DNA of 64,000 nucleotides, from the IMG/VR virus record IMGVR_UViG_3300037400_002076, positions 7,717-71,716 of that record; one strand, written 5' to 3'. A program made the translations under genes and the position numbers. Below the pieces are notes generated by a model. The model did not search any database and was not told where the DNA came from. It saw only the letters and a program-made list of their open reading frames with translations. Positions 1,845-63,128 of this stretch are shown piece after piece (positions within the stretch are counted from its first letter, which is position 1; each line of letters begins with the position of its first letter). This stretch comes from a virus. Its lineage: Duplodnaviria > Caudoviricetes.

Positions 1845-2430
1845 TATCGCTTTTGATTATCTGTCAAACCCTCTGTATAACAACTTTGGCGTCGGTCAGA
1901 ATAATCAGACTATACAACCTAACCCACAGGGTAATATCCCTTTTAACAAAAACGAGGTACAGTCTCTCGGCTTACGTCAGCTAATGAATTTCAACGTTAT
2001 CCCTAGCTTTACCGATAGTGACGGCAAAACTTGGCGATTAGTTAAATCTGCAAATGACTCAAGCGTTGAGATCCCGGACCCTCGATTTGTGCAAGTCAGC
2101 GACTATTGGGTACATGAATTTCCTAACACTTCTGGCAAGGTGTTTCTCTATGTTGTTGAGGGGATCAAACAACCTCGCAATACAGGCGAACGACCTGTGA
2201 GAGTGCTGTATCAATGGTTTTCAACAAAGTGCGTTATGACGTTTAATCCACAGCTTATCACTCAAAATGAATGGTTGAGAGCAAACGTTTATACCGCACC
2301 GATAACTGATAGCAGATTGAGTAAACTCTCTGCATTATGTGGTATAGAAATGCCAACCGATGATACCACTAATACTGCCGTTCCGTCTGATAACAACGAG
2401 CCAGACATAGATCTTGATAGCTTGAGGTAA
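1831..2430 (+). CDS. Hypothetical protein with N/Q/P-rich N-terminus
   Basis: GGAG RBS favours ATG 1831 over 1813; overlaps the upstream stop. Confidence 0.8.
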   Translation: MATSNIAFDYLSNPLYNNFGVGQNNQTIQPNPQGNIPFNKNEVQSLGLRQLMNFNVIPSFTDSDGKTWRLVKSANDSSVEIPDPRFVQVSDYWVHEFPNTSGKVFLYVVEGIKQPRNTGERPVRVLYQWFSTKCVMTFNPQLITQNEWLRANVYTAPITDSRLSKLSALCGIEMPTDDTTNTAVPSDNNEPDIDLDSLR

Positions 2431-2433
2431 AGT

Positions 2434-2676
2434 ATGGAAGATGATATTGAATTGCCAAAGGGTAAAATAACCGACGAGGTAACGCCTTATACGAACGTAA
2501 TTAAGCGTAACGTAAAGCAGTTATTGCAGTCAGACCTGAATCAAAATAATCTCTTTAATGCAATAATGGCAAAAGGTGTAAAGTTAATGAGCGGTGATCA
2601 TTCAGACCAAACTCTTGTTGATTTTGCCTCTCTGTTGATTACCTATAAAATTAAGTTTGCCAAAGATAAAAAGTGA
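2434..2676 (+). CDS. Hypothetical protein
   Basis: 80 aa, GAGG RBS, translationally coupled. Confidence 0.75.
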   Translation: MEDDIELPKGKITDEVTPYTNVIKRNVKQLLQSDLNQNNLFNAIMAKGVKLMSGDHSDQTLVDFASLLITYKIKFAKDKK

Positions 2677-2685
2677 TGATAAAAT
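2657..2685 (+). promoter_or_regulatory. Sigma70-type promoter with extended -10
   Basis: TTGCCA-N17-TAAAAT with TG at -15/-14. Confidence 0.65.
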
Positions 2686-2726
2686 GCTGTTTTCGTTGAT
2701 TGGTTATTTTCAAGGAGAACAGCATT

Positions 2727-3374
2727 ATGTTCATGGCTTTTGAGGGTGGTGACGGCTGTGGTAAAACATCAGCTATCGCTTATATAAAGAAAAAGTTAGA
2801 CACGGTTCAAAAAGACTCCGCAATTGTCCTTAACGATTGGCATGGTGAATACGGCAATCACTGTAAACGCACTCTGACTACTCACCCTTATCTCGACGAC
2901 ATCACACGCCTGCAACTCGTGGAGAACTGTCGCTCTCACTCTATAAACAACGTCAATGATAAGCTATCACAGGGTAAAATCGTTCTCTATGATCGCTTCG
3001 TTCTGTCTACTTATGCGTATCAGTCAAGCCTCGGTATCGGCTCGCTAGATCCGACCGTTATCACAAAATTCGCCGATAAGGATATAAGAACGTTGAGAGA
3101 AAAACCTGTTTACGTTATCCTTAAAGGTGTTGATTATGACACTCAACAAGAGCGTATAAAGACTCGCAATTCTTCTGTAATCGATGTGTTTGACTTCATG
3201 GGTAGAGATAAGTACGAAAAGATACAAAACTTTTATGACAACGCAACTCAATTGCTTTTGCTGTTTCATAACAGACCTAATGTTATCTTTATCGACAACT
3301 CTCAGGATGTAGAACATCTGCATAAGCAACTCGACAGAATTGTTAATCTTATTTTAGATAGACAAAAGGACTAG
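2727..3374 (+). CDS. tmk: Thymidylate (dTMP) kinase
   Basis: P-loop FEGGDGCGKT and the YDRF motif; AAGGAG RBS before ATG 2727. Confidence 0.9.
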   Translation: MFMAFEGGDGCGKTSAIAYIKKKLDTVQKDSAIVLNDWHGEYGNHCKRTLTTHPYLDDITRLQLVENCRSHSINNVNDKLSQGKIVLYDRFVLSTYAYQSSLGIGSLDPTVITKFADKDIRTLREKPVYVILKGVDYDTQQERIKTRNSSVIDVFDFMGRDKYEKIQNFYDNATQLLLLFHNRPNVIFIDNSQDVEHLHKQLDRIVNLILDRQKD

Positions 3375-3379
3375 TTATT

Positions 3380-3838
3380 ATGAAAATGAATCTTGATGTT
3401 GATTTGGCTCAGGAACTTAAAGAACCTCTGCCAAAAGGTACTTACATTCTCGAATATTCACGAGACGGCTTCTCAAACTCCGATACGATTATCGACATCT
3501 ACTGCACCGTACTGCAAGCAGACGATCCTAAACTTGTCGGCGAGACATGTAAGATACAAACCTGTTTCAGCAACGAAAATAAGCGTATCGTGGCTATAGG
3601 CAACTCTATCCGTAACCAAATCTTTAAGGCTTGTATCGGCAAGGATCTGTTTGAAGCTGAACAAAAGAAAGGAGGTATCGCAACCTCTAAACTTTACGGC
3701 TGTAAATTTCAGTGCAATGTAGATCTCAAACAGACTGAATATGGACTGTCTCCATACAAGAATGTCTTTAATGGTTTTAAATGTATCTTAACCGAAGAAG
3801 AACAGGCTGAATTAGCCAAGACAAAATTCGTTGATTAA
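3380..3838 (+). CDS. Hypothetical protein, possibly DUF669-like ssDNA-binding
   Basis: N-terminal EPLPKGTY resembles DUF669-type phage SSB starts (recall only). Confidence 0.5.
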   Translation: MKMNLDVDLAQELKEPLPKGTYILEYSRDGFSNSDTIIDIYCTVLQADDPKLVGETCKIQTCFSNENKRIVAIGNSIRNQIFKACIGKDLFEAEQKKGGIATSKLYGCKFQCNVDLKQTEYGLSPYKNVFNGFKCILTEEEQAELAKTKFVD

Positions 3839-3858
3839 GACCTGCAATAATTTTTGAC

Positions 3859-3900
3859 AAAGCCTGTACTCTGTTATAATGAGTGCGGGCTTTTTCTTTT
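3859..3900 (+). terminator. Intrinsic terminator whose loop contains an extended -10 box
   Basis: AAAGCCTGTACTC-TGTTATAAT-GAGTGCGGGCTTTTTCTTTT. Confidence 0.7.
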
Positions 3901-3914
3901 GAGGAGAAATACAA

Positions 3915-10625: not shown

Positions 10626-13600
10626 ATGAGTGATAATAATCAGATTATAATCGAGTTTGACGGCGATACCACGCAATTTAACAAGAAGTTTGACGCCGTT
10701 AGAAAACGCTTGGAACGTCTTAGAGACAAAGAACATACTGCCACAATAAATCTTGAGTTTAAAGGTAGACAGACTCTCACAAACGTAAAAAACGAAGTTA
10801 AAAAACTAGAGAGTGAAACTCATACTATCAATGTTGATATTCAGATTCCGCATTTGAATAACATTACGTCTCTGCAAAATCAATTCGCAAATATAGCAAG
10901 CACAGTTAACTCTTTTAAGGTTGACGATAGTATCGTTCGTTCATTAACCGGGGTAACGTCAGCGTTGCAGGGAATTACAAACTTTGATGCAACCTCTTTA
11001 CGTGATACACGTAACGCTATAAGCGATATATCATCTTCGTTACAAAACTTAAAAAATTTAAACACAGCCCCGGTTAACAACATTCAAAATGTGTTGACAA
11101 ACTTATCTGTTGCTTTACGTGGTGTCAACAGAACAGGCTCTACCGGGATTCGTGATTTAGCATCATCTCTCTCTACCTTATCATCAGCTTTACAGGCTGT
11201 AACTCGCATTGACGCTACGTATATTCAAGATTTGGCGAACTCTGTTTCATCTTTGCATATAGATCCTGCTTTAGCCGATCAAATGAAAACCTTGGGTAGT
11301 GCTATGTCAAGATTGGGTAAAGGTCTTGATGATTTGAGTTTGACTAAAAGATTTTCGGCTGTAAACAATACCGTCGACCTTATCAACGATCTTGGCAGGA
11401 TAAGAGTTACAGGTGATTTTTCTGGTCTTGAACATGTATCAAAGATAGTATCAGGTATCGGCAGAGGTTTGACTCAGTTAGAAAAAATCAATAATGTTAA
11501 CTTAACTCCTGTCAAAGTTTTAATTAACATGTTGAATAGTGCTCATGTTGATATATCATCAGCAGCAGGCTTTGAAGCTATCGGTACCGGGCTTGGCAAA
11601 ATCGTCACTGCACTCAATCGTTTGGACAGTGTAACAGTTAATTCTATGAGCAACCTGCAAAGAATGTTAGGTGTGCTAGGCACTTTCATACAACAGTTAA
11701 CCGCATTAGGCAATAACACTAAAGCTATTACCACTGTTGCTGAACTTATAAGAGAGTTAAAAAACCTGACCACTGCATTAGGGGGCACTCAAAGCGGCAT
11801 GAGACGTGTGCAAACCTCTACCCAACAAACTACTAGCTCGCTCTCTGTATTCTCTCGTCAGGTTGTATCTAATATAGCTGACTTGCGACGTGTTGCTGCT
11901 TCTATCTATATATTTAAAAATGCAACAACTTGGATTAAGCAAACCTCAGAAGAATTAGATAGATATACTGTTGTGCAAAACAAGTTACGTGGGTTATACG
12001 ACGGCGACGAGAACAAGGTTTCCAAAGTTAGCGAAATGATTTTCCAATCAGCACAAGATGCACGTACTAGTATGGAAGCATTTTCTACTACATTCCTGAA
12101 AGTACAGCTCGCAACTGAAAAGTACGGCTTCTCTGCTCAACAGGCTGTACAGGTTACTAACACTCTCGCTAAAGCTATGGTTATCGGTGGTGCTACCGCA
12201 AGCGAAACTGCTTCTGTAATGTTGCAGTTCTCACAGGCTTTGTCCAAGGGTAAACTCGACGGCGATGAATTTAGATCCGTAATGGAAAACTCTCCTGTAC
12301 TTATGCGAGCTTTAGCTAGAGAAGCAGGTAAAGCTATGGGTGTAATGAACGCAGGTCAGAAAGAGTTAATGAAGTGGTCTAAAGAGGGTAAACTCACTAT
12401 TGACATTCTCATCAAAGCATTGTTAAACCTGCATAATGAAATTGACGAAAAGTTTAGCAATACCACTGAAACTGTAGGTCAGGCTTTCCAAAAACTTGAA
12501 AATGTATCTATTAAGACAATGGGGCAGTTTGCAAGTGAAACAGGATTGCTTGACGGAGTAAAGAATGTTGTAAACGGCATAGGTAATCTTGTAAAACTGT
12601 TGAACGGTGGGTTAGGTAAAACTGTTATATCTTTAGGCAAGGCGGTACTGTTTCTTGGTCAGATATATGTGTATTACAAGGCGTTACGTGGTGTTGAATG
12701 GATCTTGGGTATCTTATCATCAGCTCGTGGTTCGTTGGTTAACATGGTTGGTCTGCAATACTCATTAGTTAGACTTAATCGTGAAAACGTAGCTTTAAGA
12801 ACCGAAGATAATATTCTTACTGCTCGTATAGCTATGGCTGACAAGGCTAGAGAAGCTATAGACCAACGTATCCTGATGATTCAGCGTCAGATAAACCTCA
12901 ATGCACAGGCTTATACCCGCGAACAGATGAAGCAGTTACAAAACGACCTGGACCACGCAAAAGCGCTTAGAGATAACATGGGGGTACAAGGAACTGTAAT
13001 GTCAGCAAGCGACACTGGAAAAAGCGGTATAGGTGCGTTTGTCAAAGGCTTTTTTGGTTTGTTCGCAAAGGTTGCAGTTATATCAGCAGCAATGTATGGA
13101 ATACAAAAACTCACAGACGCTTTAATGTCTATGAGTCAGGCAGGTCAAACTCTTAAACATGCTTTAGAGGGTGACATATCCGCAATTAAAGATTTGCAAG
13201 ATGAGGATTTACAATCATGGCTTAACTTTGCTGATATTCTTGGTCGTATATCAGGCATTGATTTCGGTAACGTTCAGCAGTTAAAGCAGGAAATGATCAA
13301 GGCTCGTAACGAAGTCGCAGGTATAGATCCGCAAACTTCCGCAGCTATGGCAAAAGACGAAAGAGGTTTTTGGACAAAATGGTGGGAAGAAACAAAGCGT
13401 GGTGCTTCCGATCTGACAAAAAGTATCACAACATCTTTTGACAGACCTTTAGAAGCTATTGATTCTAAATTCAAAGCGTTTAGAAACTTAACTCTGGCCA
13501 CAGTGCAAGTAAATGATCGTGTATTAGAAATCGTTTCTGAAAAAGTGAGTGCTCTTGGTGAAAACGAAAAACTGAGAATTAGTGAGAATAAGGAACTCAT

Positions 13601-16100
13601 TTCATTGGTCAATGGCTCTAAAGACTTGGTTGGAAGATTGGCTATTGCTTATGAACACATGGGCGAAGTTCACCTGGCTAACAAATCTTATGATCTTGTT
13701 GAAAAATTGAACCTTATCTTAAAGCAAGACGCTTTAACAAAACAAGATTTAAACGCTATAACAAGACTTATGTCTGAAAACGTGGAATTAATACAGGCTT
13801 ATAACAATGGTAGCGAGGTAGTTAGAAATACCGCAGGATATACACGTGCTGACGGTACAACTGTAACTCTTTTGCATGAGCATGAGTATAGACAGCAATT
13901 GTTAAAAGAAATGCAGGATGAAGTTATTAAGGCTAAAGAAAGATCACAAAAATTAAACGAACTCACCGAAGCATATCCAGTGTTAAAAGATGCCACTTTT
14001 GATGTTAAAAGCGAACTTGTTGACACGGTTAAATTCGTACAGGAGTTAAACGGTGGGTTTGAAAAGAATGTTGGATTGCTTGATAGTTTTGCAAAGAGCT
14101 TAGCTGATATTATTAAGGTTCAACAGGGTCTTGAGGGATATGTAAACCCTTACGAATTAGCTAAAAAACAAGCGTTTTCTACCGAAAGCGACACTATGAA
14201 ACGATATGCAGAAACAGGTAATCAGTATCTGAAATCAAAGACAGGTTCTAAAGGCTTTGGTGTTTTTTCCGAGGGCAATAAATTGTATTTCGGTAAGAGT
14301 GCTGATGATGAAAATAGAATACCTGTTAAAACCAGAGATTACAACGAACATACTATAACCACTGCTCTTGACAACGCACAAAACGCTTACGAAAGAGCAG
14401 AAAAAGAACGCAAGGAAAAAACAAAAAGCAAACCGAAAGCTACAGGTGGTGGCGGTCATAAGAAAGAGTTTAAGATCGATTGGCTTGACATGCGAGATCT
14501 TGGTGGAAATCTGTATGACAGTTTAAACCCGGAAAACATCCTTGATACGTTTACCAACATGGTCGGTGCAAACAAGAACCTGTTGTTCTTAAACGAGGAA
14601 ATGACCGCTTGGTATGAGGAACAGGCTAAACTCCTTGAAGAAGCTAAAGAATGTGGCGTTGTATTATCTCAACAGGATTTATCACGTCTGCAATCTTTAT
14701 TCATGCAACGCAGACATATGGAAGAGGTTGCAAAGGCTGAACAAGGTTTTGTATCTGATGTTACTAAAGAAGCACATCAGCGTGAGATAAACATCGAAGC
14801 CTTAAACGACCTTATCAAAAAACAGGAAGCATTAGGTAAATCCGCACAGGCTTATAAAGAATTGCTGACCGAGCAGAGAACCGAGTTAGAAAAAATGACC
14901 CATGAGTTTGAAAAGCAACTTAAACTCAAACAACAGGGTGATTTTATCGGCGGTATAACATCTCGTTATGAAGATCTTTATAAGGCTTTAAGACAAGATA
15001 AGAGCGATAAAGAAATCACTGATAAGGAGAAAGACCAACTGCTTAATCAGGCTGTTAGAGAACGCTTTACAGAGGTGTTCACTGATAAGTACAATGAAAT
15101 TATCGGTAACGGCAAAGGCATGTTTGGTTACGAGGATATAATCAATAATATCGCCGCAGGTCAGGCTTGGGCTTCTGGCAATATAAGTGATTATGGAATG
15201 GCTGAAAATATGCGTGGTGGACTTGATACTATTCGTGAATATTTAGGTCAATTCGGCAGAACAGGTCAGTCTGATAGCTTTTTACGTAGCATGGGGTTAA
15301 ACCCAGAAGAATGGGATGAATGGTCTCTCGCAGGTCTGAACGCTATAGCTCAATTGACAGACGGCTTTAAGGGCTTGACATACACTCTATCAGAAGAGCT
15401 TTCAGGTGCTATGACTAAATTTACAGATGGCATCGCTAATGGCTTGGCTAATGCTATCGTTAAGGGCGAAGATCTGAAATCTACTCTGCATAGTCTCGCT
15501 CAAACTATTTTGGTCGATCTTATATCTGCATTGATCAAAATGGGTATTCAATACGTTGCTACTAAATTCTTAATGGCAACCGTTGACAAAGGTATGCAGG
15601 CACAGGAAGCTGTTGCGTCAGTCGCTCACGCTAAAGTTGTTGCAGCCGCTTGGTTGCCTGCTGCAACGTTGGTATCAACCGCTACCGAGGGTGAAGCACC
15701 TATTACAGGTAAAATTATGATGGACCTCATGTATGAACTGAACAAGATTAAATATCTTGGTGCAGGATTCGCAGAGGGTGGTTATACAGGTGTAGGTGGT
15801 AAATATCAACCTGCGGGCATCGTTCACAAAGGCGAGTATGTATTTACACAGGCAGACGTAGATCGAATTGGTTTAACCAACCTTGAAAGCCTGCACAATG
15901 GTGAATACAACATTACAAACAACAACGTGAGCAACTACAACTCTCAAGCAGGTGTAGGTGGTAACAATGTTTCTATCGTGAACGTTGTAGACCCTGCCAT
16001 GGTTAAGGCTTATCTGAATACAAGCGACGGACAGCAGGTGATTCTGAATACGATAAAGCAGAATCCAAAAGCTGTAAAACAGATAGTCGCAACGGCATAA
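10626..16100 (+). CDS. Tape measure protein
   Basis: 1824 aa, helical; QFSQALSKGKLDGDEFRSVMENSP tape-measure domain; lambda-H-like C-terminus GFAEGGYTG..PAGIVHKGEYV. Confidence 0.95.
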   Translation: MSDNNQIIIEFDGDTTQFNKKFDAVRKRLERLRDKEHTATINLEFKGRQTLTNVKNEVKKLESETHTINVDIQIPHLNNITSLQNQFANIASTVNSFKVDDSIVRSLTGVTSALQGITNFDATSLRDTRNAISDISSSLQNLKNLNTAPVNNIQNVLTNLSVALRGVNRTGSTGIRDLASSLSTLSSALQAVTRIDATYIQDLANSVSSLHIDPALADQMKTLGSAMSRLGKGLDDLSLTKRFSAVNNTVDLINDLGRIRVTGDFSGLEHVSKIVSGIGRGLTQLEKINNVNLTPVKVLINMLNSAHVDISSAAGFEAIGTGLGKIVTALNRLDSVTVNSMSNLQRMLGVLGTFIQQLTALGNNTKAITTVAELIRELKNLTTALGGTQSGMRRVQTSTQQTTSSLSVFSRQVVSNIADLRRVAASIYIFKNATTWIKQTSEELDRYTVVQNKLRGLYDGDENKVSKVSEMIFQSAQDARTSMEAFSTTFLKVQLATEKYGFSAQQAVQVTNTLAKAMVIGGATASETASVMLQFSQALSKGKLDGDEFRSVMENSPVLMRALAREAGKAMGVMNAGQKELMKWSKEGKLTIDILIKALLNLHNEIDEKFSNTTETVGQAFQKLENVSIKTMGQFASETGLLDGVKNVVNGIGNLVKLLNGGLGKTVISLGKAVLFLGQIYVYYKALRGVEWILGILSSARGSLVNMVGLQYSLVRLNRENVALRTEDNILTARIAMADKAREAIDQRILMIQRQINLNAQAYTREQMKQLQNDLDHAKALRDNMGVQGTVMSASDTGKSGIGAFVKGFFGLFAKVAVISAAMYGIQKLTDALMSMSQAGQTLKHALEGDISAIKDLQDEDLQSWLNFADILGRISGIDFGNVQQLKQEMIKARNEVAGIDPQTSAAMAKDERGFWTKWWEETKRGASDLTKSITTSFDRPLEAIDSKFKAFRNLTLATVQVNDRVLEIVSEKVSALGENEKLRISENKELISLVNGSKDLVGRLAIAYEHMGEVHLANKSYDLVEKLNLILKQDALTKQDLNAITRLMSENVELIQAYNNGSEVVRNTAGYTRADGTTVTLLHEHEYRQQLLKEMQDEVIKAKERSQKLNELTEAYPVLKDATFDVKSELVDTVKFVQELNGGFEKNVGLLDSFAKSLADIIKVQQGLEGYVNPYELAKKQAFSTESDTMKRYAETGNQYLKSKTGSKGFGVFSEGNKLYFGKSADDENRIPVKTRDYNEHTITTALDNAQNAYERAEKERKEKTKSKPKATGGGGHKKEFKIDWLDMRDLGGNLYDSLNPENILDTFTNMVGANKNLLFLNEEMTAWYEEQAKLLEEAKECGVVLSQQDLSRLQSLFMQRRHMEEVAKAEQGFVSDVTKEAHQREINIEALNDLIKKQEALGKSAQAYKELLTEQRTELEKMTHEFEKQLKLKQQGDFIGGITSRYEDLYKALRQDKSDKEITDKEKDQLLNQAVRERFTEVFTDKYNEIIGNGKGMFGYEDIINNIAAGQAWASGNISDYGMAENMRGGLDTIREYLGQFGRTGQSDSFLRSMGLNPEEWDEWSLAGLNAIAQLTDGFKGLTYTLSEELSGAMTKFTDGIANGLANAIVKGEDLKSTLHSLAQTILVDLISALIKMGIQYVATKFLMATVDKGMQAQEAVASVAHAKVVAAAWLPAATLVSTATEGEAPITGKIMMDLMYELNKIKYLGAGFAEGGYTGVGGKYQPAGIVHKGEYVFTQADVDRIGLTNLESLHNGEYNITNNNVSNYNSQAGVGGNNVSIVNVVDPAMVKAYLNTSDGQQVILNTIKQNPKAVKQIVATA

Positions 16101-40404: not shown

Positions 40405-40504
40405 TTTTAATCCCTTGTAAGTCTTTACCTTACATACCACTCTGTATTAAAACCTCTTTCAGCAATTTCAATATTTGGCTTCATACCACTTACGGACGAG
40501 TCAG

Positions 40505-40660
40505 CTACAAATTCTGTTTCATCCGTAACTGTTTCTTTTGTATCTCGTAAAAAACTTGTGGATCACTCGGTATCTCACACAATCGCTTTCCATTTATTGC
40601 ATTTATAAGGTTTTTCTCGTTCTCTATTCCATCATTAGTGCCTAGAACTTTCTCACTCAT
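40505..40660 (-). pseudogene. 51-aa ORF coupled to the methyltransferase stop; possible truncated restriction endonuclease
   Basis: ATG overlaps the MTase stop (ATGAGTGA); MSEKVLGTNDGIENEKNLINAINGKRLCEIP...; identity is inference. Confidence 0.35.
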
Positions 40661-41630
40661 CTAAAACCTCAACCATCCTTTTTGCCAATTCACTAATAAC
40701 TGACACAACAACACTGTTGCCTATCTGTTTATATGAATGCATAGAATTTTTCTCGATAACATACCATTCAGGAAATCCCATCAATCGTAAGCATTCTTTT
40801 TCAGTAAGTTTTCTCATTTGCTCAACAACAACAGGAACATTATTCCCTCCTGTACCCATCTTTGCTGTTAAACATTGTGAAATACCATCACACCTAAAAT
40901 TGCATCTTGATGGTCTTATTTCATTTGCTAATAAAGTATTAGTCGTATCATATCTCTTTGTATTTTTGAAATCCCCAAAGAATGCCAATATGTTCTGCTT
41001 ACAAGTATCTGTAACAGCATATTCGCTAGATACATTCGTATCTATTATGTCTTTAACCTTGACAAATAATTCTTTCGGCTGTGGAAATGCATAAATTTTT
41101 TTATATTTGCCATCTTGACCATCAAAGCCAATTTTCAAATTATTTCTAAAACCAACACAGTACCACCTTTTTCTGTTTTGTGGCACACCATAATCAGATG
41201 CATTCATTACTTTCCATTGGAAATTATAACCTAGCCCTTTCAAAGTATCTTCAATAACACTAATAGTCTTGCCACCATCATGATTTACAATTCCCTCAAC
41301 ATTTTCTAAAAAGAAGGCTTTTGGTTTTCTTGCCTTTATAAGCCTTGCTACTTCAAAAAATAGAGTTCCCCTTGTATCCTCAAATCCCTTACGCAATCCA
41401 CCTAATGAGAACGGCTGGCAAGGAAATCCAGCGGCTATAATATCGAACTCAGGCAAGTCTTTTGGTTTAATCAAAGTAATATCACCCAACGGCATTTCAT
41501 TAAAGTTTTTAAAATATGTATCACACGCATATTTATCAATTTCTGAACTCATCACGCACTTAACCCCATTGCTCTCAAAGGCTATTCTTATTCCACCTAT
41601 GCCAGCAAATAGGTCAATCATTTTAAGCAT
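40653..41630 (-). CDS. DNA (cytosine-5) methyltransferase (second of a tandem pair)
   Basis: IDLFAGIGG, GFPCQPFS, ENV, QNRKRWY, TRD CLTAKMGTGGNNVP, GNSVVV; GGAG RBS before ATG 41630. Confidence 0.95.
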   Translation of the reverse strand: MLKMIDLFAGIGGIRIAFESNGVKCVMSSEIDKYACDTYFKNFNEMPLGDITLIKPKDLPEFDIIAAGFPCQPFSLGGLRKGFEDTRGTLFFEVARLIKARKPKAFFLENVEGIVNHDGGKTISVIEDTLKGLGYNFQWKVMNASDYGVPQNRKRWYCVGFRNNLKIGFDGQDGKYKKIYAFPQPKELFVKVKDIIDTNVSSEYAVTDTCKQNILAFFGDFKNTKRYDTTNTLLANEIRPSRCNFRCDGISQCLTAKMGTGGNNVPVVVEQMRKLTEKECLRLMGFPEWYVIEKNSMHSYKQIGNSVVVSVISELAKRMVEVLDE

Positions 41631-41643
41631 AATAGTCACTCCA

Positions 41644-42735
41644 TCATTTTTCACAACTAATATATTGGCTCTCCAGATAATTCAAAATACCTGTGATAAC
41701 AGGTGGACTAACAGCATTCCCAGATTGTTTATACATTTGTGCCATACTCATTCCAATATTTCTAATTTTCTCAACGAATTTAGGATCAAATCCTTGAATA
41801 TAAAAATTTTCAATAGCTGTCACTTTTCTAATCTTTTTAGTACCACCATCATCAACCAATATCTTTGTTGTATCTGCTCTTGCTAATACAGTTGGCGAGA
41901 TACCTTTGGTAGAATAAACCCTTCTTTGCCTTTCAAGATCGTTGTGAACATCTCGTGGCAAATCAAATAATTTTATTATTCTACTTTCCTTTTTAGCACT
42001 ATCCAAAATATCTAATGCACTTAAATAATTTCTGATTTTATCAGTATCAAAATAGAATGAAGCATCTACATTAGTTTCAAGAATATCCTCTATGTACTTC
42101 TTTTTATTCTTGAATACAACATGATTAAAAAAGTTAAACCCCTTAAAATCGGTATCATTAAACTTTTTCTTTAATGCATTAACTTTTGTACTTCTAATAT
42201 CATCCTCATATTTTTCTGCTAACAATCCATATATGCCCAAAATATAGGTTCTGTCTCTATTCTGTGGTACTCCAGCTTCACATGAATTTATTACAGTAAA
42301 ATCAACTGTATAGCCTATATCATTCAATGTTTTTAAGATTTTTCTTATAGTCTCGGTTTTGTCATGACTTATAAGATTTTTAACATTTTCAAGCAATATA
42401 TATCTTGGTTTCTTTTCATTAAGAATTCTTGCAACATCAAAAAACAATGTACCTCTAGTATCTTCAAATCCCTTTTGTTTTCCAGCAATACTAAACGATT
42501 GACAAGGAAACCCCGCCAATAATAAATCATGTGTTGGAACATCCTTTTCATTTACCTTTGTAATGTCGCCCTCAAAATTTTCACCACCCCAATTTGCAAT
42601 ATATGATTTTCTTGCATTTTCATCAATTTCAGATGCAAACACAACTTTACCTTTTATCTTTGATTTTTTAAGACCAACTTCAAAGCCACCAATTCCAGAA
42701 AATAAGGAGACAACTTTTATGTTATCTTTACTCAT
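41644..42735 (-). CDS. DNA (cytosine-5) methyltransferase (first of a tandem pair)
   Basis: VSLFSGIGG, GFPCQSFS, ENVKNL, QNRDRTY, GISPTVLAR, GNAVSPP. Confidence 0.95.
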   Translation of the reverse strand: MSKDNIKVVSLFSGIGGFEVGLKKSKIKGKVVFASEIDENARKSYIANWGGENFEGDITKVNEKDVPTHDLLLAGFPCQSFSIAGKQKGFEDTRGTLFFDVARILNEKKPRYILLENVKNLISHDKTETIRKILKTLNDIGYTVDFTVINSCEAGVPQNRDRTYILGIYGLLAEKYEDDIRSTKVNALKKKFNDTDFKGFNFFNHVVFKNKKKYIEDILETNVDASFYFDTDKIRNYLSALDILDSAKKESRIIKLFDLPRDVHNDLERQRRVYSTKGISPTVLARADTTKILVDDGGTKKIRKVTAIENFYIQGFDPKFVEKIRNIGMSMAQMYKQSGNAVSPPVITGILNYLESQYISCEK

Positions 42736-45320: not shown

Positions 45321-46490
45321 TTACACGATAATTCTACTGATTAAAAACTTCTGCTGCTCTGCACCCTGTTCCTCTTCTTTACTTACGAACGGAACAATCA
45401 TACAGTTATTACACTTGTCTGCAAACATTAAACTCATCTGTTCAGTGTCAATTGTGTTGCATACCTGAATGATGTATTCAGCGTTTAACGCAATTGAAAA
45501 TCCGTCTTTACCTGAATATGTACCTGCTTCGATACTGTCGATACAATCTTCATGCTTTGAGTTTTTCGCTTGAATATCGCAAGAGGTCGAACTGAATACT
45601 AATTCAACCGCTTTGTTCAAATTGTTACTCATTATAGATACACGAGCTACTGTTTCAGCCAGGATTTTCTTGTTGACTGTGTAGATGTGGTTAGGATTGC
45701 TAAACAGCATATTGCTAACATTCGGATATGCACAATCGATTTTAACGCTTAATAAATCCACTTCATTCACTGTTGTAGAGATAGCGTTACTACTTACACT
45801 GATTGTAACTTCCTCGTTATCCTCAATCGTTTTTTTCGCTGAATTTAACAGGTTGTATAACTGTTCGGTAGCTTTCTTTGGCAGGATAAAACCATTGTCG
45901 GTATTTTCTGTAGGATACTTTACCTCTTCAATTTCACATGCGTTTATCGCTAATCTATGTCCGTCGGCAGCAATCACTGTCAGTTTTTTACCCTCAGTCT
46001 GAAAACGCAACCCCTTTAAAAACAATCTGTAACTGTCATTAGCAATGCAGAATTTGGTTGTTTTTATAAGCTGTAATAACTCGTTTGCGTTGATCTTGTA
46101 CTCAAATAACGGCTTTACAGATATTACCTCCGGGAACAAGTCAGCGTTAATTGCCACCATAGATGATCTGAATTTACCACAGGAAGCACTCAATTTTTCA
46201 CCATCTTCTGCAATGCTAAACTTGAATATACCGCTAGGTGCTTTCTTTAACAGTTCTAACAATGTCTTTGCATTTACTGTTGTCTTACCTGCTTCCATGA
46301 CTGTTACCCCATACGCATAAGTAGATAACTGTACTTCGCAGTCGGTACATGTAAGTAACATCTTGTCGCTTTCGCTGTCAACGCTTAATAATACGTTTGC
46401 GGTTACTGGGTTTGCTGAATTTGTACTTGCCACGTTTGAAATCTTTGATAACTTTTCAAGCAGCTCTTCTTTTACAATTGTAAACTTCAT
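45321..46490 (-). CDS. dnaN: DNA polymerase III beta sliding clamp homolog
   Basis: MKFTIVKEELL; TCTDCEVQL; GKTTVNAKTL; AADGHRLA; FILPKKA; IALNAEYI; 389 aa three-domain length. Confidence 0.9.
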   Translation of the reverse strand: MKFTIVKEELLEKLSKISNVASTNSANPVTANVLLSVDSESDKMLLTCTDCEVQLSTYAYGVTVMEAGKTTVNAKTLLELLKKAPSGIFKFSIAEDGEKLSASCGKFRSSMVAINADLFPEVISVKPLFEYKINANELLQLIKTTKFCIANDSYRLFLKGLRFQTEGKKLTVIAADGHRLAINACEIEEVKYPTENTDNGFILPKKATEQLYNLLNSAKKTIEDNEEVTISVSSNAISTTVNEVDLLSVKIDCAYPNVSNMLFSNPNHIYTVNKKILAETVARVSIMSNNLNKAVELVFSSTSCDIQAKNSKHEDCIDSIEAGTYSGKDGFSIALNAEYIIQVCNTIDTEQMSLMFADKCNNCMIVPFVSKEEEQGAEQQKFLISRIIV

Positions 46491-51681: not shown

Positions 51682-54671
51682 TTGTCTTTTAACCCCTTAA
51701 AATCCAACAGTTTATAACACAACCCGGTTGTCTTGAACATTGTTGCCACAGTCTGTTTTGCTACAGGTTCTATCGCACCCTCAATAACCAATCTTTGTAA
51801 TGCCTGATCCACCGATCTGTTAAACCCTATCTTTGTGTTTATAAAAGATTTGTTTGCACTTAACATCGTTGTTATATATTTAATCGGTACTACAGCTTTT
51901 GCCTGCATTGCTTTTATCGTTTCTACATTACAGTTTGACCGGGTAGCTAATGTGATTTGATTGCTTGAGATCACAAAGCCTTTAAATACATCTAACATTG
52001 TTTCAACCTGTGTAGTCTCACTGTTTCCTGTTAAGTTTGTATCGCCGTTAGCAATCATCTCGTACATCGTTGCTATATCTAACATCACAAGGCGAGTAGC
52101 CCAACCCATATGCTGTAATGTTATTTTTGGCGACCCAGGGTTTTGGCATACCGCACATATACCTGCGAGCTTCATAATCTTCAACTGAAATCTTACCCAG
52201 GCTTGTCTAAAATGTTCTTTATCCCCTGCCTGATCAAGCATATCTATTGATAACTGTTCCAACAAATCATTGTACTCAAACGCAGGCTCGGTAAAATCCA
52301 CATTCACAAATCTAGGCTTTATCCCCTCTGCTAATCCCTCTTCCTGAATACATAAGTCTTTGATAGCCGATAAAACGTGTGTAGGTATCCTTTGATTTAA
52401 CCGCAGTTTATTCTGTAATACAGCTCTGCCTTTGTAGGTCACAGTTATAAATCGGCTTAAAAAACCGTCTTGCGCCATTTGTGGTGAAAGTGCATCAGCA
52501 TAACCTGCAATAGTCGTTTCACCGACAACTGAAAACGCAGGTGCGGTAGCTTCTGAAATACTCTCATCTGCATTACTGTATGTCATTGCACTTAACATCG
52601 CTGTTTTTCCTGAACCTGTATACAGCTTTAAATACTGACCCTTTAAAGTATCCGCAGGTGAACCTACTCTGCAATCTCCCATCTGTGCTAATGCTTTACC
52701 AAATTCTGACTGAAAATTGCAAAAACTTACGTAGCGTCTCGCAGGTTGACTGCCTAATGCTGCACTCCCCGCTGTCATTGACATTCGCTTGGCTGTTGAT
52801 ACTGACCCTGCTTCTGCCAAACATCGCTTTACAAGTGCCTGACCTGATACGAAATCATCATCTACTATATGACGGCGTAGTTTTCCGATTTCCGTCGGAT
52901 AAGCCTCAGTAAATTCCCATACAAGATCGTTTTTGGTAGTATGCAAACCCTCTTTACCTATACCGCTTCTCGCAGAAAGGATAATATAATTGTTCAAACC
53001 TGTGCCAGTTGGTAACTGCCACATTTTTCCTACGATACCACTAGCAATGGCTAATGCGCTTACTACTGATACTTCCAAGATAGGTTTAATTCTTGTCTGA
53101 TATGACCATTTGGTTAAATCGTACAGCCACCCAGAGCTAACAGGAGGTACAATCATGGCGTTAGTATCAGAGATTGAAAATCCCTTTGAGGTTATATACC
53201 CCTTGTCTAACAAACGCTTAAACGAAATGTCATTGTCTGATTTGAATGATACTATCTCATTGCTTGGAACAACCCCCACTCTTTTTAATTGAGCGACCAA
53301 ACCTGTGGCGTACATGCAGTCAGCCAACAATTCAGCCGGGGTATAAGTCGGATCGGTATCCTCATTCTGCCAACGTGAATTTACCAACACTGTTTCAGGA
53401 GCAATATCGAGATACTTCTTGTTGATAAACTCATCTATAAGAGCTTTCTTTTCCGCTTCTTCCTCGGTTTTTCTCTGCTCGTTAATGTCATTTACAATAT
53501 TTGTAACCTGCTCATCGATTTCAGTGTTAAACTGTGGAATTGCGTAGGTATTAGCCTCGCTTTCTCTCACGCTGGCTATCATGCGATTAAGATAATCTAC
53601 TCGTGTTGCTTTAGGTCTTTTTGCCAACTCTGACTGTGCAAAAATAGCTTTTACCACTGAATCAATTTTGCAATAACGACAAATCAAACTTATCAATGCA
53701 AAGTCGGCTTCTGACTGTGACGGATAACTTAATGTGTACTCTGAATTGTAAACGCTCTTTGTAGGATCATTGTCGTAGTTCAGATTACAATGCGCTTCAA
53801 ATAATTGCAAAAACGTCTCACGATCCGTTGATTGCAGAATTTCACAAACATGAAAGTTTATATCCACAACCAACACATCAGTGTCATATGTGTATGCGGT
53901 ATCAACATCAACACTTTCCACCGATTGCTGCTGTGCAGGCTCTTTTAACGCTGCACATAATTCGTCAAGTTCTTTTTGTCTTGATTCTATTGTGGTAACT
54001 TCTTTTTCAACAACATCTTCTGTTACAACAGCAAATCTGTCTTGAGAATAGACTTCAAAACCGACAATTCCTTGGGCTTTGTGTTTAGCCCCACTACGAA
54101 TACCACTAGCACCTGTTTTGCTTGAATTTGGATATTTTGTCTCATCGATCTTGCCTTTGATGATAACGTGATAACCTGTGCCACTGACGGATCTCTCCGT
54201 ATATGAATTTAACTTTTCAATCCATAAGTCTTGAAAACCAATTTCCTGCTGAGATAACTGCTCTTTTCGATCAAGGTCAATTATCGCAAACGGACAATCT
54301 TTTGTGAACACAAATCCCATAGCGAGCTGACATTCACGATTTACGGGGTAGAGCATCAACGAATTACGACACAGCTTGTCTACCGCAGCATATGTGAGCC
54401 AACCTGCTTTGAATTTGATTGTAGCACCTGTGTTAGCTAAATCTCCTGAGTAACTTTTGTTGCCACTCTTATCAACAGAAAATGTGTACTGCAACCATAA
54501 GTTATCACCCTGTTGGATGTAATCTTCGTTGCCATCCTCAAAATACTGAGGATATACTGCCTTTACCTTGTCAATCCAACTTTGTGTTACAACGAGCGGT
54601 TGTTTTTCACCTGTCTTACCAAAACACAACGCCCACTGCTTCAATTCCTTTAATTCTTCTAAACTATCCAC
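51669..54671 (-). CDS. Primase-polymerase / helicase fusion
   Basis: AEP motifs FAIIDLD and TERSVSGTGYH; SQSEADFAL helical domain; C-terminal Walker-A-like ARSGIGKE and DGFLSRF. Confidence 0.8.
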   Translation of the reverse strand: MDSLEELKELKQWALCFGKTGEKQPLVVTQSWIDKVKAVYPQYFEDGNEDYIQQGDNLWLQYTFSVDKSGNKSYSGDLANTGATIKFKAGWLTYAAVDKLCRNSLMLYPVNRECQLAMGFVFTKDCPFAIIDLDRKEQLSQQEIGFQDLWIEKLNSYTERSVSGTGYHVIIKGKIDETKYPNSSKTGASGIRSGAKHKAQGIVGFEVYSQDRFAVVTEDVVEKEVTTIESRQKELDELCAALKEPAQQQSVESVDVDTAYTYDTDVLVVDINFHVCEILQSTDRETFLQLFEAHCNLNYDNDPTKSVYNSEYTLSYPSQSEADFALISLICRYCKIDSVVKAIFAQSELAKRPKATRVDYLNRMIASVRESEANTYAIPQFNTEIDEQVTNIVNDINEQRKTEEEAEKKALIDEFINKKYLDIAPETVLVNSRWQNEDTDPTYTPAELLADCMYATGLVAQLKRVGVVPSNEIVSFKSDNDISFKRLLDKGYITSKGFSISDTNAMIVPPVSSGWLYDLTKWSYQTRIKPILEVSVVSALAIASGIVGKMWQLPTGTGLNNYIILSARSGIGKEGLHTTKNDLVWEFTEAYPTEIGKLRRHIVDDDFVSGQALVKRCLAEAGSVSTAKRMSMTAGSAALGSQPARRYVSFCNFQSEFGKALAQMGDCRVGSPADTLKGQYLKLYTGSGKTAMLSAMTYSNADESISEATAPAFSVVGETTIAGYADALSPQMAQDGFLSRFITVTYKGRAVLQNKLRLNQRIPTHVLSAIKDLCIQEEGLAEGIKPRFVNVDFTEPAFEYNDLLEQLSIDMLDQAGDKEHFRQAWVRFQLKIMKLAGICAVCQNPGSPKITLQHMGWATRLVMLDIATMYEMIANGDTNLTGNSETTQVETMLDVFKGFVISSNQITLATRSNCNVETIKAMQAKAVVPIKYITTMLSANKSFINTKIGFNRSVDQALQRLVIEGAIEPVAKQTVATMFKTTGLCYKLLDFKGLKDKWQE

Positions 54672-57307: not shown

Positions 57308-57332
57308 AAAAATGACTAAGAATAACTGCTAA

Positions 57333-59045: not shown

Positions 59046-59062
59046 TGAATAAATCTCCTATC

Positions 59063-59812
59063 TTAATTAAATTCTAAAATTTCCACTTGCTCATCCATAT
59101 CTACTTTTCCTGTTGTTATCAGTTTTTCTTCACCTCCCTCCATTAACAGTAATGAAATAATGTTGACTATCTTGGTTATACGTCTGCATACGTTATAATG
59201 ATTAAAACTAATCATCATCGCTAAAAAACAGCGCAGTCGTAACTTCGACGAAAATGTTTTTGTAAATTTGTATACGTCAGATTTAAACCCTCGATCTGAA
59301 TACATCGCACTTCTTGACAGTAATGAGATAAACTCATTCACGTGTGATTCGGTGTACAGCTTGTTTGCATCCATGTCGCATATAATCTCGGACACTTCCG
59401 GGGTAACACGCTCTAAATCGATAATCTGATTTAAACGCTCGATAGAGGTGATGCCGTCTGGAACTGTATAATTCATACTTGACAATAACTCTTCACAAAC
59501 GGATTTTGAATTTAAACCTAAAATCTGATTGTCTAAGCAGCAGTATAATCTGTGAGAAAATATATTAGACCCCGCTTCGTCAAACATTTCAAAATCAACG
59601 TTCTGCAATGGTTTAGATAAAAACGTGTTCAGATTGTCTGACAGCTTTTGCAATACACTCTTGTTTGAAATCAACGTAAACACTTTCTTTGCGTTCTTCC
59701 CTGTGTATTTCACAAAAAATCTACCCATTGTATATGCAAAATGCACTCGTACTATTCGATTGTTTTTCTTAATATCACTTATAACAACATGCGCTGGCAT
59801 TGTTAATTTCAT
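59063..59812 (-). CDS. Hypothetical protein
   Basis: 249 aa, coupled. Confidence 0.75.
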   Translation of the reverse strand: MKLTMPAHVVISDIKKNNRIVRVHFAYTMGRFFVKYTGKNAKKVFTLISNKSVLQKLSDNLNTFLSKPLQNVDFEMFDEAGSNIFSHRLYCCLDNQILGLNSKSVCEELLSSMNYTVPDGITSIERLNQIIDLERVTPEVSEIICDMDANKLYTESHVNEFISLLSRSAMYSDRGFKSDVYKFTKTFSSKLRLRCFLAMMISFNHYNVCRRITKIVNIISLLLMEGGEEKLITTGKVDMDEQVEILEFN

Positions 59813-60294
59813 AATTCGATCTCCAAATCAGGTTCAAACTCTACCACTGTGTTGCTCATACAATCGTTTTCGTATCTCTTTTTGTAGTATTCGTACACTT
59901 TTTGATTAACTCTCTTTTCAACCATCGATTCAAACAACACTGGGTTTTTATCACAGTCCTGCCAATACTTGTAAATGGTTCTTGGATTTAGCCCGGTTAT
60001 CTTGCTCAACGCAGAAGCGGTGAATTTACAATCCCTAAACTCAATAGCTCCACAAACGGATTTTGTATTCTCTTCCGTTTCTCCCGTTGCCGTAACCATA
60101 CTCGGATATACGCTTTGTGTATACCATTTTTCCAAATCCTTATACACAGGAATTTCTTTGTAGCAACGTGAAAAACCAAGATCACTCTCAAAATCTTTCA
60201 TTTCAACCGCTTTGCTAATCATCGTGTTTAAACTCCAACTGTTTATCGTACCCATTTTCGATAATTCGTCGGTCAACACATCTTCATAACTCAT
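59809..60294 (-). CDS. Hypothetical protein with possible HTH
   Basis: TASALSKITGLNPRTIYKY. Confidence 0.6.
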   Translation of the reverse strand: MSYEDVLTDELSKMGTINSWSLNTMISKAVEMKDFESDLGFSRCYKEIPVYKDLEKWYTQSVYPSMVTATGETEENTKSVCGAIEFRDCKFTASALSKITGLNPRTIYKYWQDCDKNPVLFESMVEKRVNQKVYEYYKKRYENDCMSNTVVEFEPDLEIEL

Positions 60295-60794: not shown

Positions 60795-60950
60795 ATTATC
60801 ACCTGTTACAAACTATTCTAAAATCTCAGTCAAAACCAATTGACAAATCTAATTATACATCAGTTCTTTATTTTAGTAACTGTTTTATTATTTGATTGTG
60901 AAAATGATCACAACACTTTAGCAAGGGGGCTGGCTTGTTTTCAGGTAATA

Positions 60951-61107
60951 AAAACCGATTCACAAACGGATTTTTAAATTATATAGTAATTTAAGGGGGC
61001 TAAAAACGGATTTTCCGGGGATAACCGAGCAAAAAACGGATTTTTATCTGATAAATGGGGGTTAAAAACGAATCTGCCGTTTTTAACCAATCCAAAAACA
61101 GATTTTT
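60951..61107. repeat. Phased array of AAAC(G/A)GATTTT-like motifs
   Basis: Motif C positions 60967, 61007, 61037, 61069, 61099 (spacing 40/30/32/30); GGGGG(C/T)T precedes several copies. Confidence 0.7.
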
Positions 61108-61122
61108 CTGCAACCTGAAAAG

Positions 61123-61153
61123 AAAAGGCTCAAAACTTTCGTTAAGAGCCTTT
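61123..61153 (-). terminator. Terminator hairpin
   Basis: AAAGGCTC...GAGCCTTTTCTTTT on the - strand. Confidence 0.65.
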
Positions 61154-61180
61154 ATTGACGTGGAGTAGTTATCAGATAGT

Positions 61181-61189
61181 ATTATAACA
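61181..61189 (-). promoter_or_regulatory. Extended -10 promoter
   Basis: TGTTATAAT on -, firing toward the terminator and repeat array. Confidence 0.45.
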
Positions 61190-61213
61190 CAATTTTAATC
61201 GCTTTCAACAAAT

Positions 61214-61837
61214 TTATGCACCACTGTTTTCAAGAATCTTGGCTTCTCTCTTCGCCTGCATCTCGCACAATGTTTTGATAACTCTGTTCTTGTTCAGTTT
61301 GCCACAATTCTTATCGTTCAGGTATTTTTCCGTAAAATCTCTCACTTCTTTATGATGAAATGTAAAATCCACATCGACATTAGCCTGTAGTACAAACGTT
61401 CCATACTTATCTTTGCGCACAAACTTGTTTATCGTCAGAAAAACATCACTATCATCGCCGTCGTATGTAAAAAATTCAATTGATAGCAATTGCGGTGAAA
61501 TTACCCATCGTAAACACTCAACCATCGTGTTCAGATCTTCAAGCCACAACTCGAAATCACTGTAGAAATCGTTTGGCAGTGCTTCACGCTTTAGCAAATT
61601 GTGAATCGGACACCATAGAATCCGACATAATTCAGCGTAAGAACTGAGGTCATACATAGCAGTCTTGTCGCATATACCAAGTGATTCGATAAAACTGTAC
61701 TCATCATCAGTCAGAGTGTAATTCTCATTCATCTTAACAGGTGGACCGTAAATCACGCACTTGTTATCGCCTTTGAAATTGACATATAAGCCAGATGCGT
61801 AAACCATTATTTTTAACAACGTCTTGAAATCAGTCAT
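61214..61837 (-). CDS. Hypothetical protein
   Basis: GGAGG RBS, 207 aa. Confidence 0.8.
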   Translation of the reverse strand: MTDFKTLLKIMVYASGLYVNFKGDNKCVIYGPPVKMNENYTLTDDEYSFIESLGICDKTAMYDLSSYAELCRILWCPIHNLLKREALPNDFYSDFELWLEDLNTMVECLRWVISPQLLSIEFFTYDGDDSDVFLTINKFVRKDKYGTFVLQANVDVDFTFHHKEVRDFTEKYLNDKNCGKLNKNRVIKTLCEMQAKREAKILENSGA

Positions 61838-62262
61838 ATAATCCTCCGAAAATAAAACGAAATAATGTTAGTTACTGTATGTTTTATTATAATAGATTCA
61901 TATTTTAAAACAATGATGTATATCACAAAATAAAACATATATTGTTTGCTGCGCTTCCCGGTCCGATGCGGAGGCGAGCGCCAGGTGAGTGCCGGGATAA
62001 TATCTCTCCTGATATGATTCTCTCATCGTTACACTTTATTCAAACAATGTACATTACATTTACTTTGGAAGCTCGTATTGTTCAGATATATACCTGGGAT
62101 ATGGAGCATTTATCATCGGACCATAAATCGATTTTAAGCCTAAAAAAACGCTCGCTATTGTGTTTCAAAAACCTGGGTATACAAGATATAAAGAATTTTA
62201 AACCGATTCATAAATTCGATTTTTTTGCCCTGTTTATGACCACAATATCGAACCGGGAGTTG

Positions 62263-62295
62263 AAAAGAAAAACCCTCATCAAACGACGAGGGCTT
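62263..62295 (-). terminator. Intrinsic terminator
   Basis: GCCCTCGTCG-ttt-GATGAGGGT-TTTTCTTTT. Confidence 0.75.
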
Positions 62296-62314
62296 ACAGG
62301 AATACATGTGTATA

Positions 62315-62641
62315 TCACTTGATTAAATCAGCAAGTTTAGACGCTAGTTTAGAGTTTTTGCGAGTTAACTGTATAAACTCACCTTGCTTACCCCAGCGAG
62401 GCGCATCGTTACCCTTAACATATTTAATGTCTGTTTTTATCAGGATGATTCGCGCATTATCTGAATAGCGATCATTAGTTAAGGTTTTCCATTTTCCGCA
62501 TATGTTCCAACCGTATGGATGCAAATAAATTCGATCTCCGAGAAATAAACGGACCAGCTTCTTTAGAGTCTCCTGTGCAATCACTCCCTCGATATTGCGA
62601 GGGAGGTTAGCCTGAATTTTGTCATATATCGTCTTTTTCAT
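62315..62641 (-). CDS. Hypothetical protein
   Basis: GGAGG RBS, 108 aa. Confidence 0.75.
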   Translation of the reverse strand: MKKTIYDKIQANLPRNIEGVIAQETLKKLVRLFLGDRIYLHPYGWNICGKWKTLTNDRYSDNARIILIKTDIKYVKGNDAPRWGKQGEFIQLTRKNSKLASKLADLIK

Positions 62642-62657
62642 ACTAACCTCCGCAATC

Positions 62658-63128
62658 TTATAATTCGATTTTATTCAGCTTACAAAATCGAAGTATCGTA
62701 TACTGCACATCGTCAAACAGATCCTCATAACCGACAACAAAATCTGGCTTTAGTGCATCAGCTATGTTGTTTTCAGTCACGTAATCGATAAGAAAAGCGA
62801 TATACTCATCGTGATTCAGGAAGTACAATTCACATGACTCCTTATCGACAAAATAAAAACGTGACGGATAACTTCCATCTATTAAATACTGATAACCACG
62901 ATTCTGAAAATGGACATTCTCAATAATCATATCCATATAATTGTTCACAGCACTGTACAGATGCAAATTGTGAATACGATCTACAATATCATAACCGCAA
63001 ACAGCACCAAACAGAATTTTTGCAAAGAGTTCTAATAATTCAATACCATCAGGATTGTCAAACATAACCCCGGCTTTTTCATGCTTCAAAGCGCTTATAA
63101 TTACAGAAATACTTTCATTTACATTCAT
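62658..63128 (-). CDS. Hypothetical protein
   Basis: GGAG RBS, 156 aa. Confidence 0.75.
   Translation of the reverse strand: MNVNESISVIISALKHEKAGVMFDNPDGIELLELFAKILFGAVCGYDIVDRIHNLHLYSAVNNYMDMIIENVHFQNRGYQYLIDGSYPSRFYFVDKESCELYFLNHDEYIAFLIDYVTENNIADALKPDFVVGYEDLFDDVQYTILRFCKLNKIEL

Follow-up and report, generated by a model that had tools for sequence, protein, structure and literature searches.

In this study, we analysed a 64,000-nucleotide stretch of viral DNA (hereafter the window), which comprises bases 7717-71716 of the linear 71,716-bp IMG/VR contig IMGVR_UViG_3300037400_002076, and found that the tetranucleotide CCGG is kept only where it lies inside CCSGG, that is, as CCCGG or CCGGG. 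Throughout, S denotes C or G, W denotes A or T, R denotes A or G, Y denotes C or T, D any base but C, H any base but G, and N any base, so that CCGG outside CCSGG is written DCCGGH. The contig, which is called G000 where it is compared with other genomes and loci (G and L numbers), has an estimated completeness of 75% and encodes three C5-cytosine methyltransferases (C5-MTases), MT1, MT2 and MT3. The explanation that we favour, with somewhat better than even confidence, is that a CCGG-cutting nuclease puts pressure on the phage and that CCSGG or CCNGG methylation by the phage, most likely through MT3, would shield the overlapping sites.

By exact count, CCGG occurs 20 times in the window. In nine cases the word is CCCGG with A, C or T after it, at positions 2073..2077, 11069..11073, 14528..14532, 31124..31128, 31513..31517, 51723..51727, 59992..59996, 61957..61961 and 63069..63073, of which those at 31124 and 31513 are within the MT3 gene. 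In the other eleven it is CCGGG with A, G or T before it, at 10948..10952, 11143..11147, 11587..11591, 28485..28489, 46130..46134, 51939..51943, 53336..53340, 59398..59402, 61015..61019, 61992..61996 and 62253..62257. These are the positions given in an initial annotation of this DNA, where CCCGG sites are numbered by the start of the 5-mer, and its claim that every CCGG is CCCGG or CCGGG and none is DCCGGH holds exactly (20/20 and 0). Each survivor carries a 5' C or a 3' G, and both together occur in 0 of the 20; CCCGGG, like DCCGGH, is found 0 times in the window. The remaining 7.7 kb of the contig contains no further CCGG, and the total for the whole contig is also 20.

In the whole contig, DCCGGH would be expected 60.6 times from base composition, 48.5 times under a first-order Markov model and 49.3 times under a second-order one, and it was observed 0 times. 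CCSGG was observed 20 times, against 35.0, 22.9 and 18.8 expected, respectively. The initial annotation had guessed about 50 DCCGGH and about 28 CCSGG at a GC content of about 37%, close to the computed values (48-61, 18.8-35.0 and, for the window, 38.1%), and it had proposed a whole-genome count against a Markov background, in which DCCGGH proved to be absent rather than near its expected frequency. We also permuted synonymous codons among the 87 called genes, keeping the proteins and the global codon usage. In 200 such shuffles DCCGGH occurred 56.0 ± 6.6 times (minimum 41), and 14.8 CCGG fell inside CCSGG, a null fraction of 0.21. The probability that 20 of 20 CCGG lie inside CCSGG is approximately 0.21^20 to 0.35^20, or roughly 1e-14 to 1e-9. 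DCCGGH is missing from all eight bins of 8 kb, each of which should hold 4.3-6.2 copies. The codon-shuffle and Markov nulls exclude chance or composition as the cause of the missing DCCGGH; the purge is therefore complete and was reached via synonymous choice, while CCSGG stands at or slightly above expectation. A target word that is far below the composition, Markov and codon-preserving nulls is what defines restriction-site avoidance. CCWGG, noted as present in the initial annotation, occurs 35 times in the whole contig against 47 expected, and CCNGG in G000 is 55/70 (here and below, observed/expected).

The same rule is kept by different sites in a diverged relative and, in part, in a near-identical one. 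L036 is syntenic with G000 at approximately 70% nucleotide identity; all seven of its CCGG lie in CCSGG and its DCCGGH count is 0/12.9, and none of these seven sites is orthologous to any site of G000, which excludes the possibility that the sites are inherited relics. L034, which is 98% identical to G000, differs from it by one site gain and one site loss, both of the CCSGG type; the CCGGG at 28485..28489 is CTGGG in L034. This turnover indicates that the rule is upheld by continuing selection and not by inheritance.

Relatives that have no C5-MTase show the opposite pattern. G005 (95,133 bp, complete) and G004 share 44-49 of 108 open reading frames with G000, and no C5-MTase was found in either of them. 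G005 is the exact mirror of G000, since CCNGG is 2/74 and 29 of its 30 CCGG are DCCGGH. The near-absence of CCNGG from G005 suggests that the tolerance of CCNGG in G000 is peculiar to the MTase-bearing lineage and that the context rule flips with gene content. The fragment G002 contains no CCGG. As to other words, G005 has zero GGCC, GCGC, CGCG and GCNGC (80-106 expected each), GGNCC and GGNNCC are 1/74 and 2/74, and dozens of 5-6-mers are missing. In G004 (L021-L024), CCGG outside CCSGG is over-represented (380/112), as it is 3-6 times in the small contigs L224-L230. G004 purges CGCG, GCGC and TCGA, and in the small AT-rich contigs GCGC and CGCG are for the most part scarce; the CCGG excess is therefore probably a side effect of CpG being confined to a few permitted words.

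The three C5-MTases predicted in the initial annotation were confirmed METHYLTRANSFERASES. They match PF00145 with 240-326 bits against a cut-off of 22, and motifs I (FxGxG), IV (PC), VI (ENV), VIII (QxRxR) and X (GN) occur in this order in MT1, MT2 and MT3. MT3 (30502..31971, minus strand) is a protein of 489 amino acids (aa) with a long variable region: PF00145 matches it in two stretches with an insert of approximately 200 aa between them. It is a full-length homologue of the MTases of the Bacillus phages SPR, rho11s, H2, phi3T and SPbeta (tblastn, 97% coverage and 32-36% identity).

A screen of 66 IMG/VR loci, each with an SPR-family MTase and no shorter than 9 kb, gave three unrelated phages, G006, G008 and G009, that follow the rule, have one C5-MTase each and have only this SPR-type MTase in common with G000. 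In G006 (complete or near-complete), 36 of 37 CCGG are in CCSGG, with DCCGGH at 1/46.7; in G008 (likewise complete or near-complete), 26 of 27 are, with DCCGGH at 1/39.1. G009 is a 12-kb fragment in which DCCGGH is 0/5.1 and CCSGG 8/3.7, and the rule is weakly shown in it. Because CCWGG is purged in G008 (0/47.6) and tolerated in G000 and G006 (73/72 in the latter), the shield may differ among phages, covering CCSGG in some and all of CCNGG in others, or a CCWGG enzyme blind to 5-methylcytosine (5mC) may act on G008. The single MTase of G008 has two modules, and two GC-rich words, CCSGG (26/26.7) and GCNGC (123/75), are tolerated in this genome against a background in which GGCC, CGCG, GGNCC, GGNNCC, CCWGG and GATC number 0-3. 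Several GC-rich words are tolerated in MTase-bearing genomes, which would fit, indirectly, a polypeptide that methylates more than one target.

Other phages purge CCGG and do not keep CCSGG. CCSGG is 0/5.4 in G010 and 0/5.2 in G014, and in eleven further CCGG-purging loci it is 0 against approximately 25 expected in aggregate. CCGG-directed selection thus reaches CCSGG contexts as well, and this argues against a flank preference of the nuclease. G007/L118, which is rule-like in its first 12 kb, was considered as a fourth case and rejected, because its full record has 13 DCCGGH. In several phages that are not related to one another (loci L136-L137 of G007, L061, L102, L103, L105, L106, L119 and L124), CCWGG is 0 against 20-44 expected and CCSGG is 4-8 times over-represented (74/9.6 in G007), as if CCWGG had been converted to CCSGG. 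In our own translations, the SPR-family MTase genes of G006 (L117:9391-11106) and G007 (L118:780-1920) contain stops or frameshifts in the variable region, which may stem from misassembly, gene breakage or the insertion of an element.

From these observations we infer that a type II CCGG enzyme is the pressure and that methylation is the shield, and the explanation as a whole seems to us moderately probable. A CCGG-cutting nuclease of the HpaII/MspI/BsuFI kind, carried by anaerobic hosts that may inhabit the rumen or gut, would exert strong selection on the phage. The phage would remove CCGG by synonymous changes except for copies in CCCGG or CCGGG, and these would be tolerated because a phage-encoded C5-MTase, likeliest MT3, methylates CCSGG or CCNGG. 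The inner C of CCNGG is the base modified by M.SsoII, M.ScrFI and M.DsaV, and the tolerance of CCNGG in G000 would fit such a mark there. A methyl group on this second C would occupy, within CCGG, the outer cytosine where the strand reads CCCGG and the inner cytosine where it reads CCGGG. Since HpaII does not cut when either cytosine is methylated, and MspI does not cut when the outer one is, HpaII-type and MspI-type cleavage would both be prevented. This chemistry was put forward in the initial annotation and is sound. The wider inference made there, namely CCGG pressure combined with CC(N/S)GG methylation, fits the comparative evidence better than any rival, but none of the three MTases could be recognised as an enzyme of the SsoII/ScrFI/DsaV type.

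One-sided rescue is what an overlapping duplex word of 5 bp would leave, since the same 5-mer is read on opposite strands. From the single-flank rescue it follows that a methylase site is a natural explanation, whereas flank sensitivity of a symmetric nuclease is an unnatural one. We therefore consider it quite unlikely that there is no shield and that the host nuclease or nucleases simply spare C- or G-flanked CCGG, whether as one undescribed DCCGGH enzyme or as several 6-bp enzymes (RCCGGY, WCCGGW, TCCGGA and others). Dozens of 4-6-bp words are avoided by these phages, so that many enzymes do act on them. However, a symmetric dimer would not give rescue by a single flank, and we know of no enzyme with a DCCGGH site. 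RCCGGY and WCCGGW together miss GCCGGA/TCCGGC, yet GCCGGA/TCCGGC is found 0 times against 8.9 expected. Moreover, the CCGG purgers that do not keep CCSGG remove it with the rest, and the relatives that have no C5-MTase follow the opposite context rule.

Returning to methylation as the shield, MT3 appears to be the best candidate for a CC(S/N)GG shield because it is the sole kind of C5-MTase in G006, G008 and G009 and is common to L036, which carries a copy 72% identical to it. Alignment with the Bacillus phage enzymes divides the variable region of MT3 (30682..31278, minus strand) into four modules that resemble target recognition domains (TRDs): a (aa 241-280), b (aa 298-341), c (aa 342-392) and d (aa 393-430). 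These modules are reordered and recombined among the 120 closest homologues, as is characteristic of the tandem, exchangeable TRDs that SPR-type enzymes carry between motifs VIII and IX. Module a (31132..31251, minus strand), with the core NGISRCLAA...DYKDP, is tentatively the CC(S/N)GG reader. The core G-[ILM]-[SA]-R-C-L-[AK]-A occurs only in five loci that purge DCCGGH yet keep CCSGG (G000, L034, L036, L078 and L110) and is missing from every locus that purges CCSGG as well. This association was sought between modules and tolerated words in the 66 IMG/VR loci, four Logan/ENA loci and seven metagenome contigs, and module a was the one lead, a weak one, that emerged. When the module-a core was used as an alignment query, no locus was confirmed, and an exact degenerate DNA pattern for it found nothing in viral contigs.

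Several observations weigh against this assignment. The three genomes with the signature do not share a single clearly homologous TRD; a core of 9 aa links module a of G000 with one module of G008, and G006 lacks the module-a core and has a b-like module instead. Contigs with a module a approximately 80-100% identical to that of MT3 neither purge CCGG nor enrich CCSGG, and therefore module a is not tied to the CCGG pattern. Motif IV of MT3 reads PCT, whereas the usual form is PCQ. The L036 contig stops before the region of MT2 and MT1, so that L036 may carry the pair as well. In addition, the TRD of M.SsoII (GFGYG...TISARYYKDG) could not be convincingly aligned by BLASTP with MT1, MT2 or MT3. 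The query was the 379-aa MTase of the 4.2-kb plasmid of Shigella sonnei, which we take to be M.SsoII from its length and plasmid. Its catalytic domain is 31-40% identical to those of MT1-MT3, the TRD parts give gapped, scattered matches, and its N-terminal helix-turn-helix is absent from MT1, MT2 and MT3. Two other routes to the specificity were tried and abandoned: among structures in the PDB, M.HhaI is the best match for MT1-MT3 and its TRD aligned in MT1 only, which does not fix the target, and the names given to the homologues in their sources were uninformative.

Module b is the part of the variable region with a clear likeness to a Bacillus enzyme. Its match is to residues 253-286 of SPR (score 83, z 11) and to a phi3T/SPbeta block; nothing in the Bacillus enzymes clearly corresponds to modules a, c and d. 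The likeness fits the partial tolerance of GCNGC in G000, or some other target. The SPR MTase methylates CCGG among other sites, and the match of module b to SPR, together with the frequent richness in CCGG of contigs that have module a, is what one would expect if MT3 methylated CCGG broadly and a type IV host nuclease selected against methylated CCGG, with CCSGG methylated differently or not at all. This possibility is very remote in our opinion, because the methylase would have to be context-limited and the type IV enzyme context-blind, a 5' C or a 3' G would not rescue a site under any known type IV specificity, and G002, G010 and G014 purge all CCGG and do not show the pattern.

The other two C5-MTases are encoded by a tandem pair on the minus strand, in which MT2 (363 aa, 41644..42735) comes first and MT1 (333 aa, 40653..41654) second; both match PF00145. 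MT2 is 71-92% identical to the first MTase of bacterial type II restriction-modification (R-M) loci with the order controller protein, MTase, MTase and nuclease, the nuclease being 518-522 or 779 aa long. MT1 is M.HhaI-like over its full length (E 5e-73, residues 9-325) and 57% identical to the second MTase of the Acetoanaerobium noterae locus; it is also 40% identical to M.SsoII, with the TRD poorly aligned. The bacterial operons (L005-L008, L039, L040, L130 and L131) sit on chromosomes, on a small Staphylococcus plasmid and on a mobilisable element, and their full-length nucleases match the PADLOC REase_II model PDLC03402. Directly downstream of MT1, a tblastn search with the partial restriction endonuclease of L039 detected a frameshifted remnant of approximately 77 codons (40431..40660, minus strand), which is 92% (aa 1-37) and 79% (aa 36-77) identical to the N-terminus of that nuclease in two reading frames. 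The homologues of the phage pair thus belong to complete operons of four genes, and the phage copy has no functional nuclease. The homology of the pair and the adjoining stub indicate that MT2-MT1 is, as judged from these alignments, a captured and disarmed type II R-M system which has lost its nuclease. The closest copies of this system in species genomes are only 69-72% identical, and copies of 88-92% are found in other assemblies; the captured system therefore did not lead to a host.

This pair might itself provide the shield in place of MT3, for example if each enzyme methylated one strand of CCCGG/CCGGG. The target of MT2-MT1 is probably a site whose two strands differ, since tandem C5-MTases are usual for such sites, and the pair derives from a real type II system, stub included. 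The identity of approximately 40% between MT1 and M.SsoII overall and the end of the L036 contig before the region of the pair also speak for this idea. We nevertheless judge it unlikely. The unrelated phages G006, G008 and G009 follow the rule with a single SPR-type MTase and no pair, the cognate nuclease of 518-779 aa is unlike the small known CCSGG enzymes BcnI and NciI, and neither MT1 nor MT2 has a TRD that aligns with that of M.SsoII.

As for the origin of the pressure, G000 is a siphovirus-like phage with an anaerobe as its host. It encodes a 1824-aa tape-measure protein and other tail proteins, a replication set of DNA polymerase, primase, helicase, ligase, clamp-like protein and thymidylate synthase, and an anaerobic ribonucleotide reductase, the gene of which is present in the contig. 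No phage record in INPHARED is close to G000 at the DNA level. The relatives retrieved via the primase are derived from metagenomes, the samples of which were presumably from the rumen. It is conceivable that the purge was driven by a CCGG nuclease of the phage itself, acting for instance in degradation of host DNA, with the CCSGG sites shielded in the way described above. About 25% of the genome is missing from the contig, and two large HNH/homing-endonuclease-like genes are present. These, however, match homing-endonuclease families, and nothing in the contig matches the HpaII, MspI or EcoRII-C nuclease families. The neighbours of MT3 match no PADLOC restriction or defence model, and two of them have weak PHROG matches to the HNH-endonuclease family phrog_3377. 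Hence we give a nuclease of the phage itself very little credence, and a host enzyme is the preferred source of the pressure.

The two large HNH/homing-like genes are paralogues, located at 7079-8902 of the window (plus strand, 607 aa) and 37927-39633 (minus strand, 568 aa). Both match phage homing/HNH endonuclease families (phrog_3339, phrog_559; PADLOC HEase), and one of them is placed between nrdD and the MTase pair. A gene for a Dam-like adenine methyltransferase (PF02086) lies outside the window, at contig bases 1931-2677 on the minus strand. GATC is not avoided in G000 (194/221) and is avoided in several relatives (G001 13/57, G005 96/256).

CCGG is one of many words that G000 avoids. 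The avoided 4-mers include GGCC (8/78), CGCG (10/102) and GCGC (26/114), the gapped words GGNNCC (7/70), GGNCC (16/70) and GCNGC (52/114), and the further 5-6-mers CCTTC, GGGAC, GAAGAC, AAGCTT, GAATTC and CTTAAG, among others. This phage family is exposed to many restriction enzymes. CTNAG is another degenerate word that is split in complementary fashion: G000 purges hexamers containing CTWAG (ACTAAG 3/42, ACTTAG 3/42, CCTAAG 2/22) and keeps CTSAG (39/95), whereas in G005 CTSAG is purged (5/93) and CTWAG is kept. At 56001-64000 of the window the avoidance of GCGC is locally relaxed: it is 11/15.2 there, where the other 8-kb bins have 0-5. The CGCG and CCSGG that survive are clustered in this region too, yet GGCC and DCCGGH are still zero. 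The region may have entered by recombination, as a module of another phage whose restriction history differed.

As a rule, avoiding sites and encoding a methylase are regarded as alternative ways for a phage to escape restriction. In G000 the two appear to be combined on one word, so that methylation of a 5-bp word would decide which copies of a 4-bp word go. The ingredients, namely site avoidance, multispecific phage methylases and cross-protection by overlapping methylation, are already known; our literature search found no description of flank-conditional avoidance as the footprint of a phage's own methylation. We regard it as about an even question whether flank-conditional purging is a general, sequence-readable footprint of cross-protection and whether a hitherto uncharacterised SPR-family module reading CCSGG or CCNGG neutralises a CCGG enzyme in at least three unrelated lineages. 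If this is true, targets of methylase modules and the restriction repertoires of unknown hosts could be inferred from the genomes of uncultured phages, with no need of methylome data. Long-read methylome surveys detect 5mC poorly, and the rule could let 5mC specificities be read from sequence alone and predict host restriction enzymes. It also offers a way to find out which target is read by a new module within the classical multispecific methylase family.

Compared with known cases of restriction-site avoidance in phages, G000 is alike in that type II target words are strongly depleted by synonymous changes. It is unlike them in that the avoidance of one word depends on its flank, copies that overlap a second word of 5 bp being spared. 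With M.SPRI, M.Phi3TI, M.Rho11sI, M.H2I and M.SPBetaI, MT3 shares an end-to-end alignment at approximately 35% identity, the conserved core and shuffled tandem TRD-like modules. However, the phage that encodes it is unrelated to theirs, siphovirus-like and a parasite of an anaerobe, and GGCC, the classical target of the Bacillus phage enzymes, is not tolerated in G000; to our knowledge, CCSGG or CCNGG is not a described target of those enzymes. M.SsoII, M.ScrFI, M.DsaV and M.Ecl18kI resemble the putative shield in the methylated word and in the predicted effect on CCGG enzymes, but the analogy is functional only, since the TRD and the N-terminal helix-turn-helix of M.SsoII are not recognisable in MT1-MT3. 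In cross-protection in vitro, a methylase with a longer or different site blocks an overlapping subset of the sites of a nuclease. That is a laboratory technique, whereas G000 seems to show the same logic as an evolutionary footprint in natural phage genomes.

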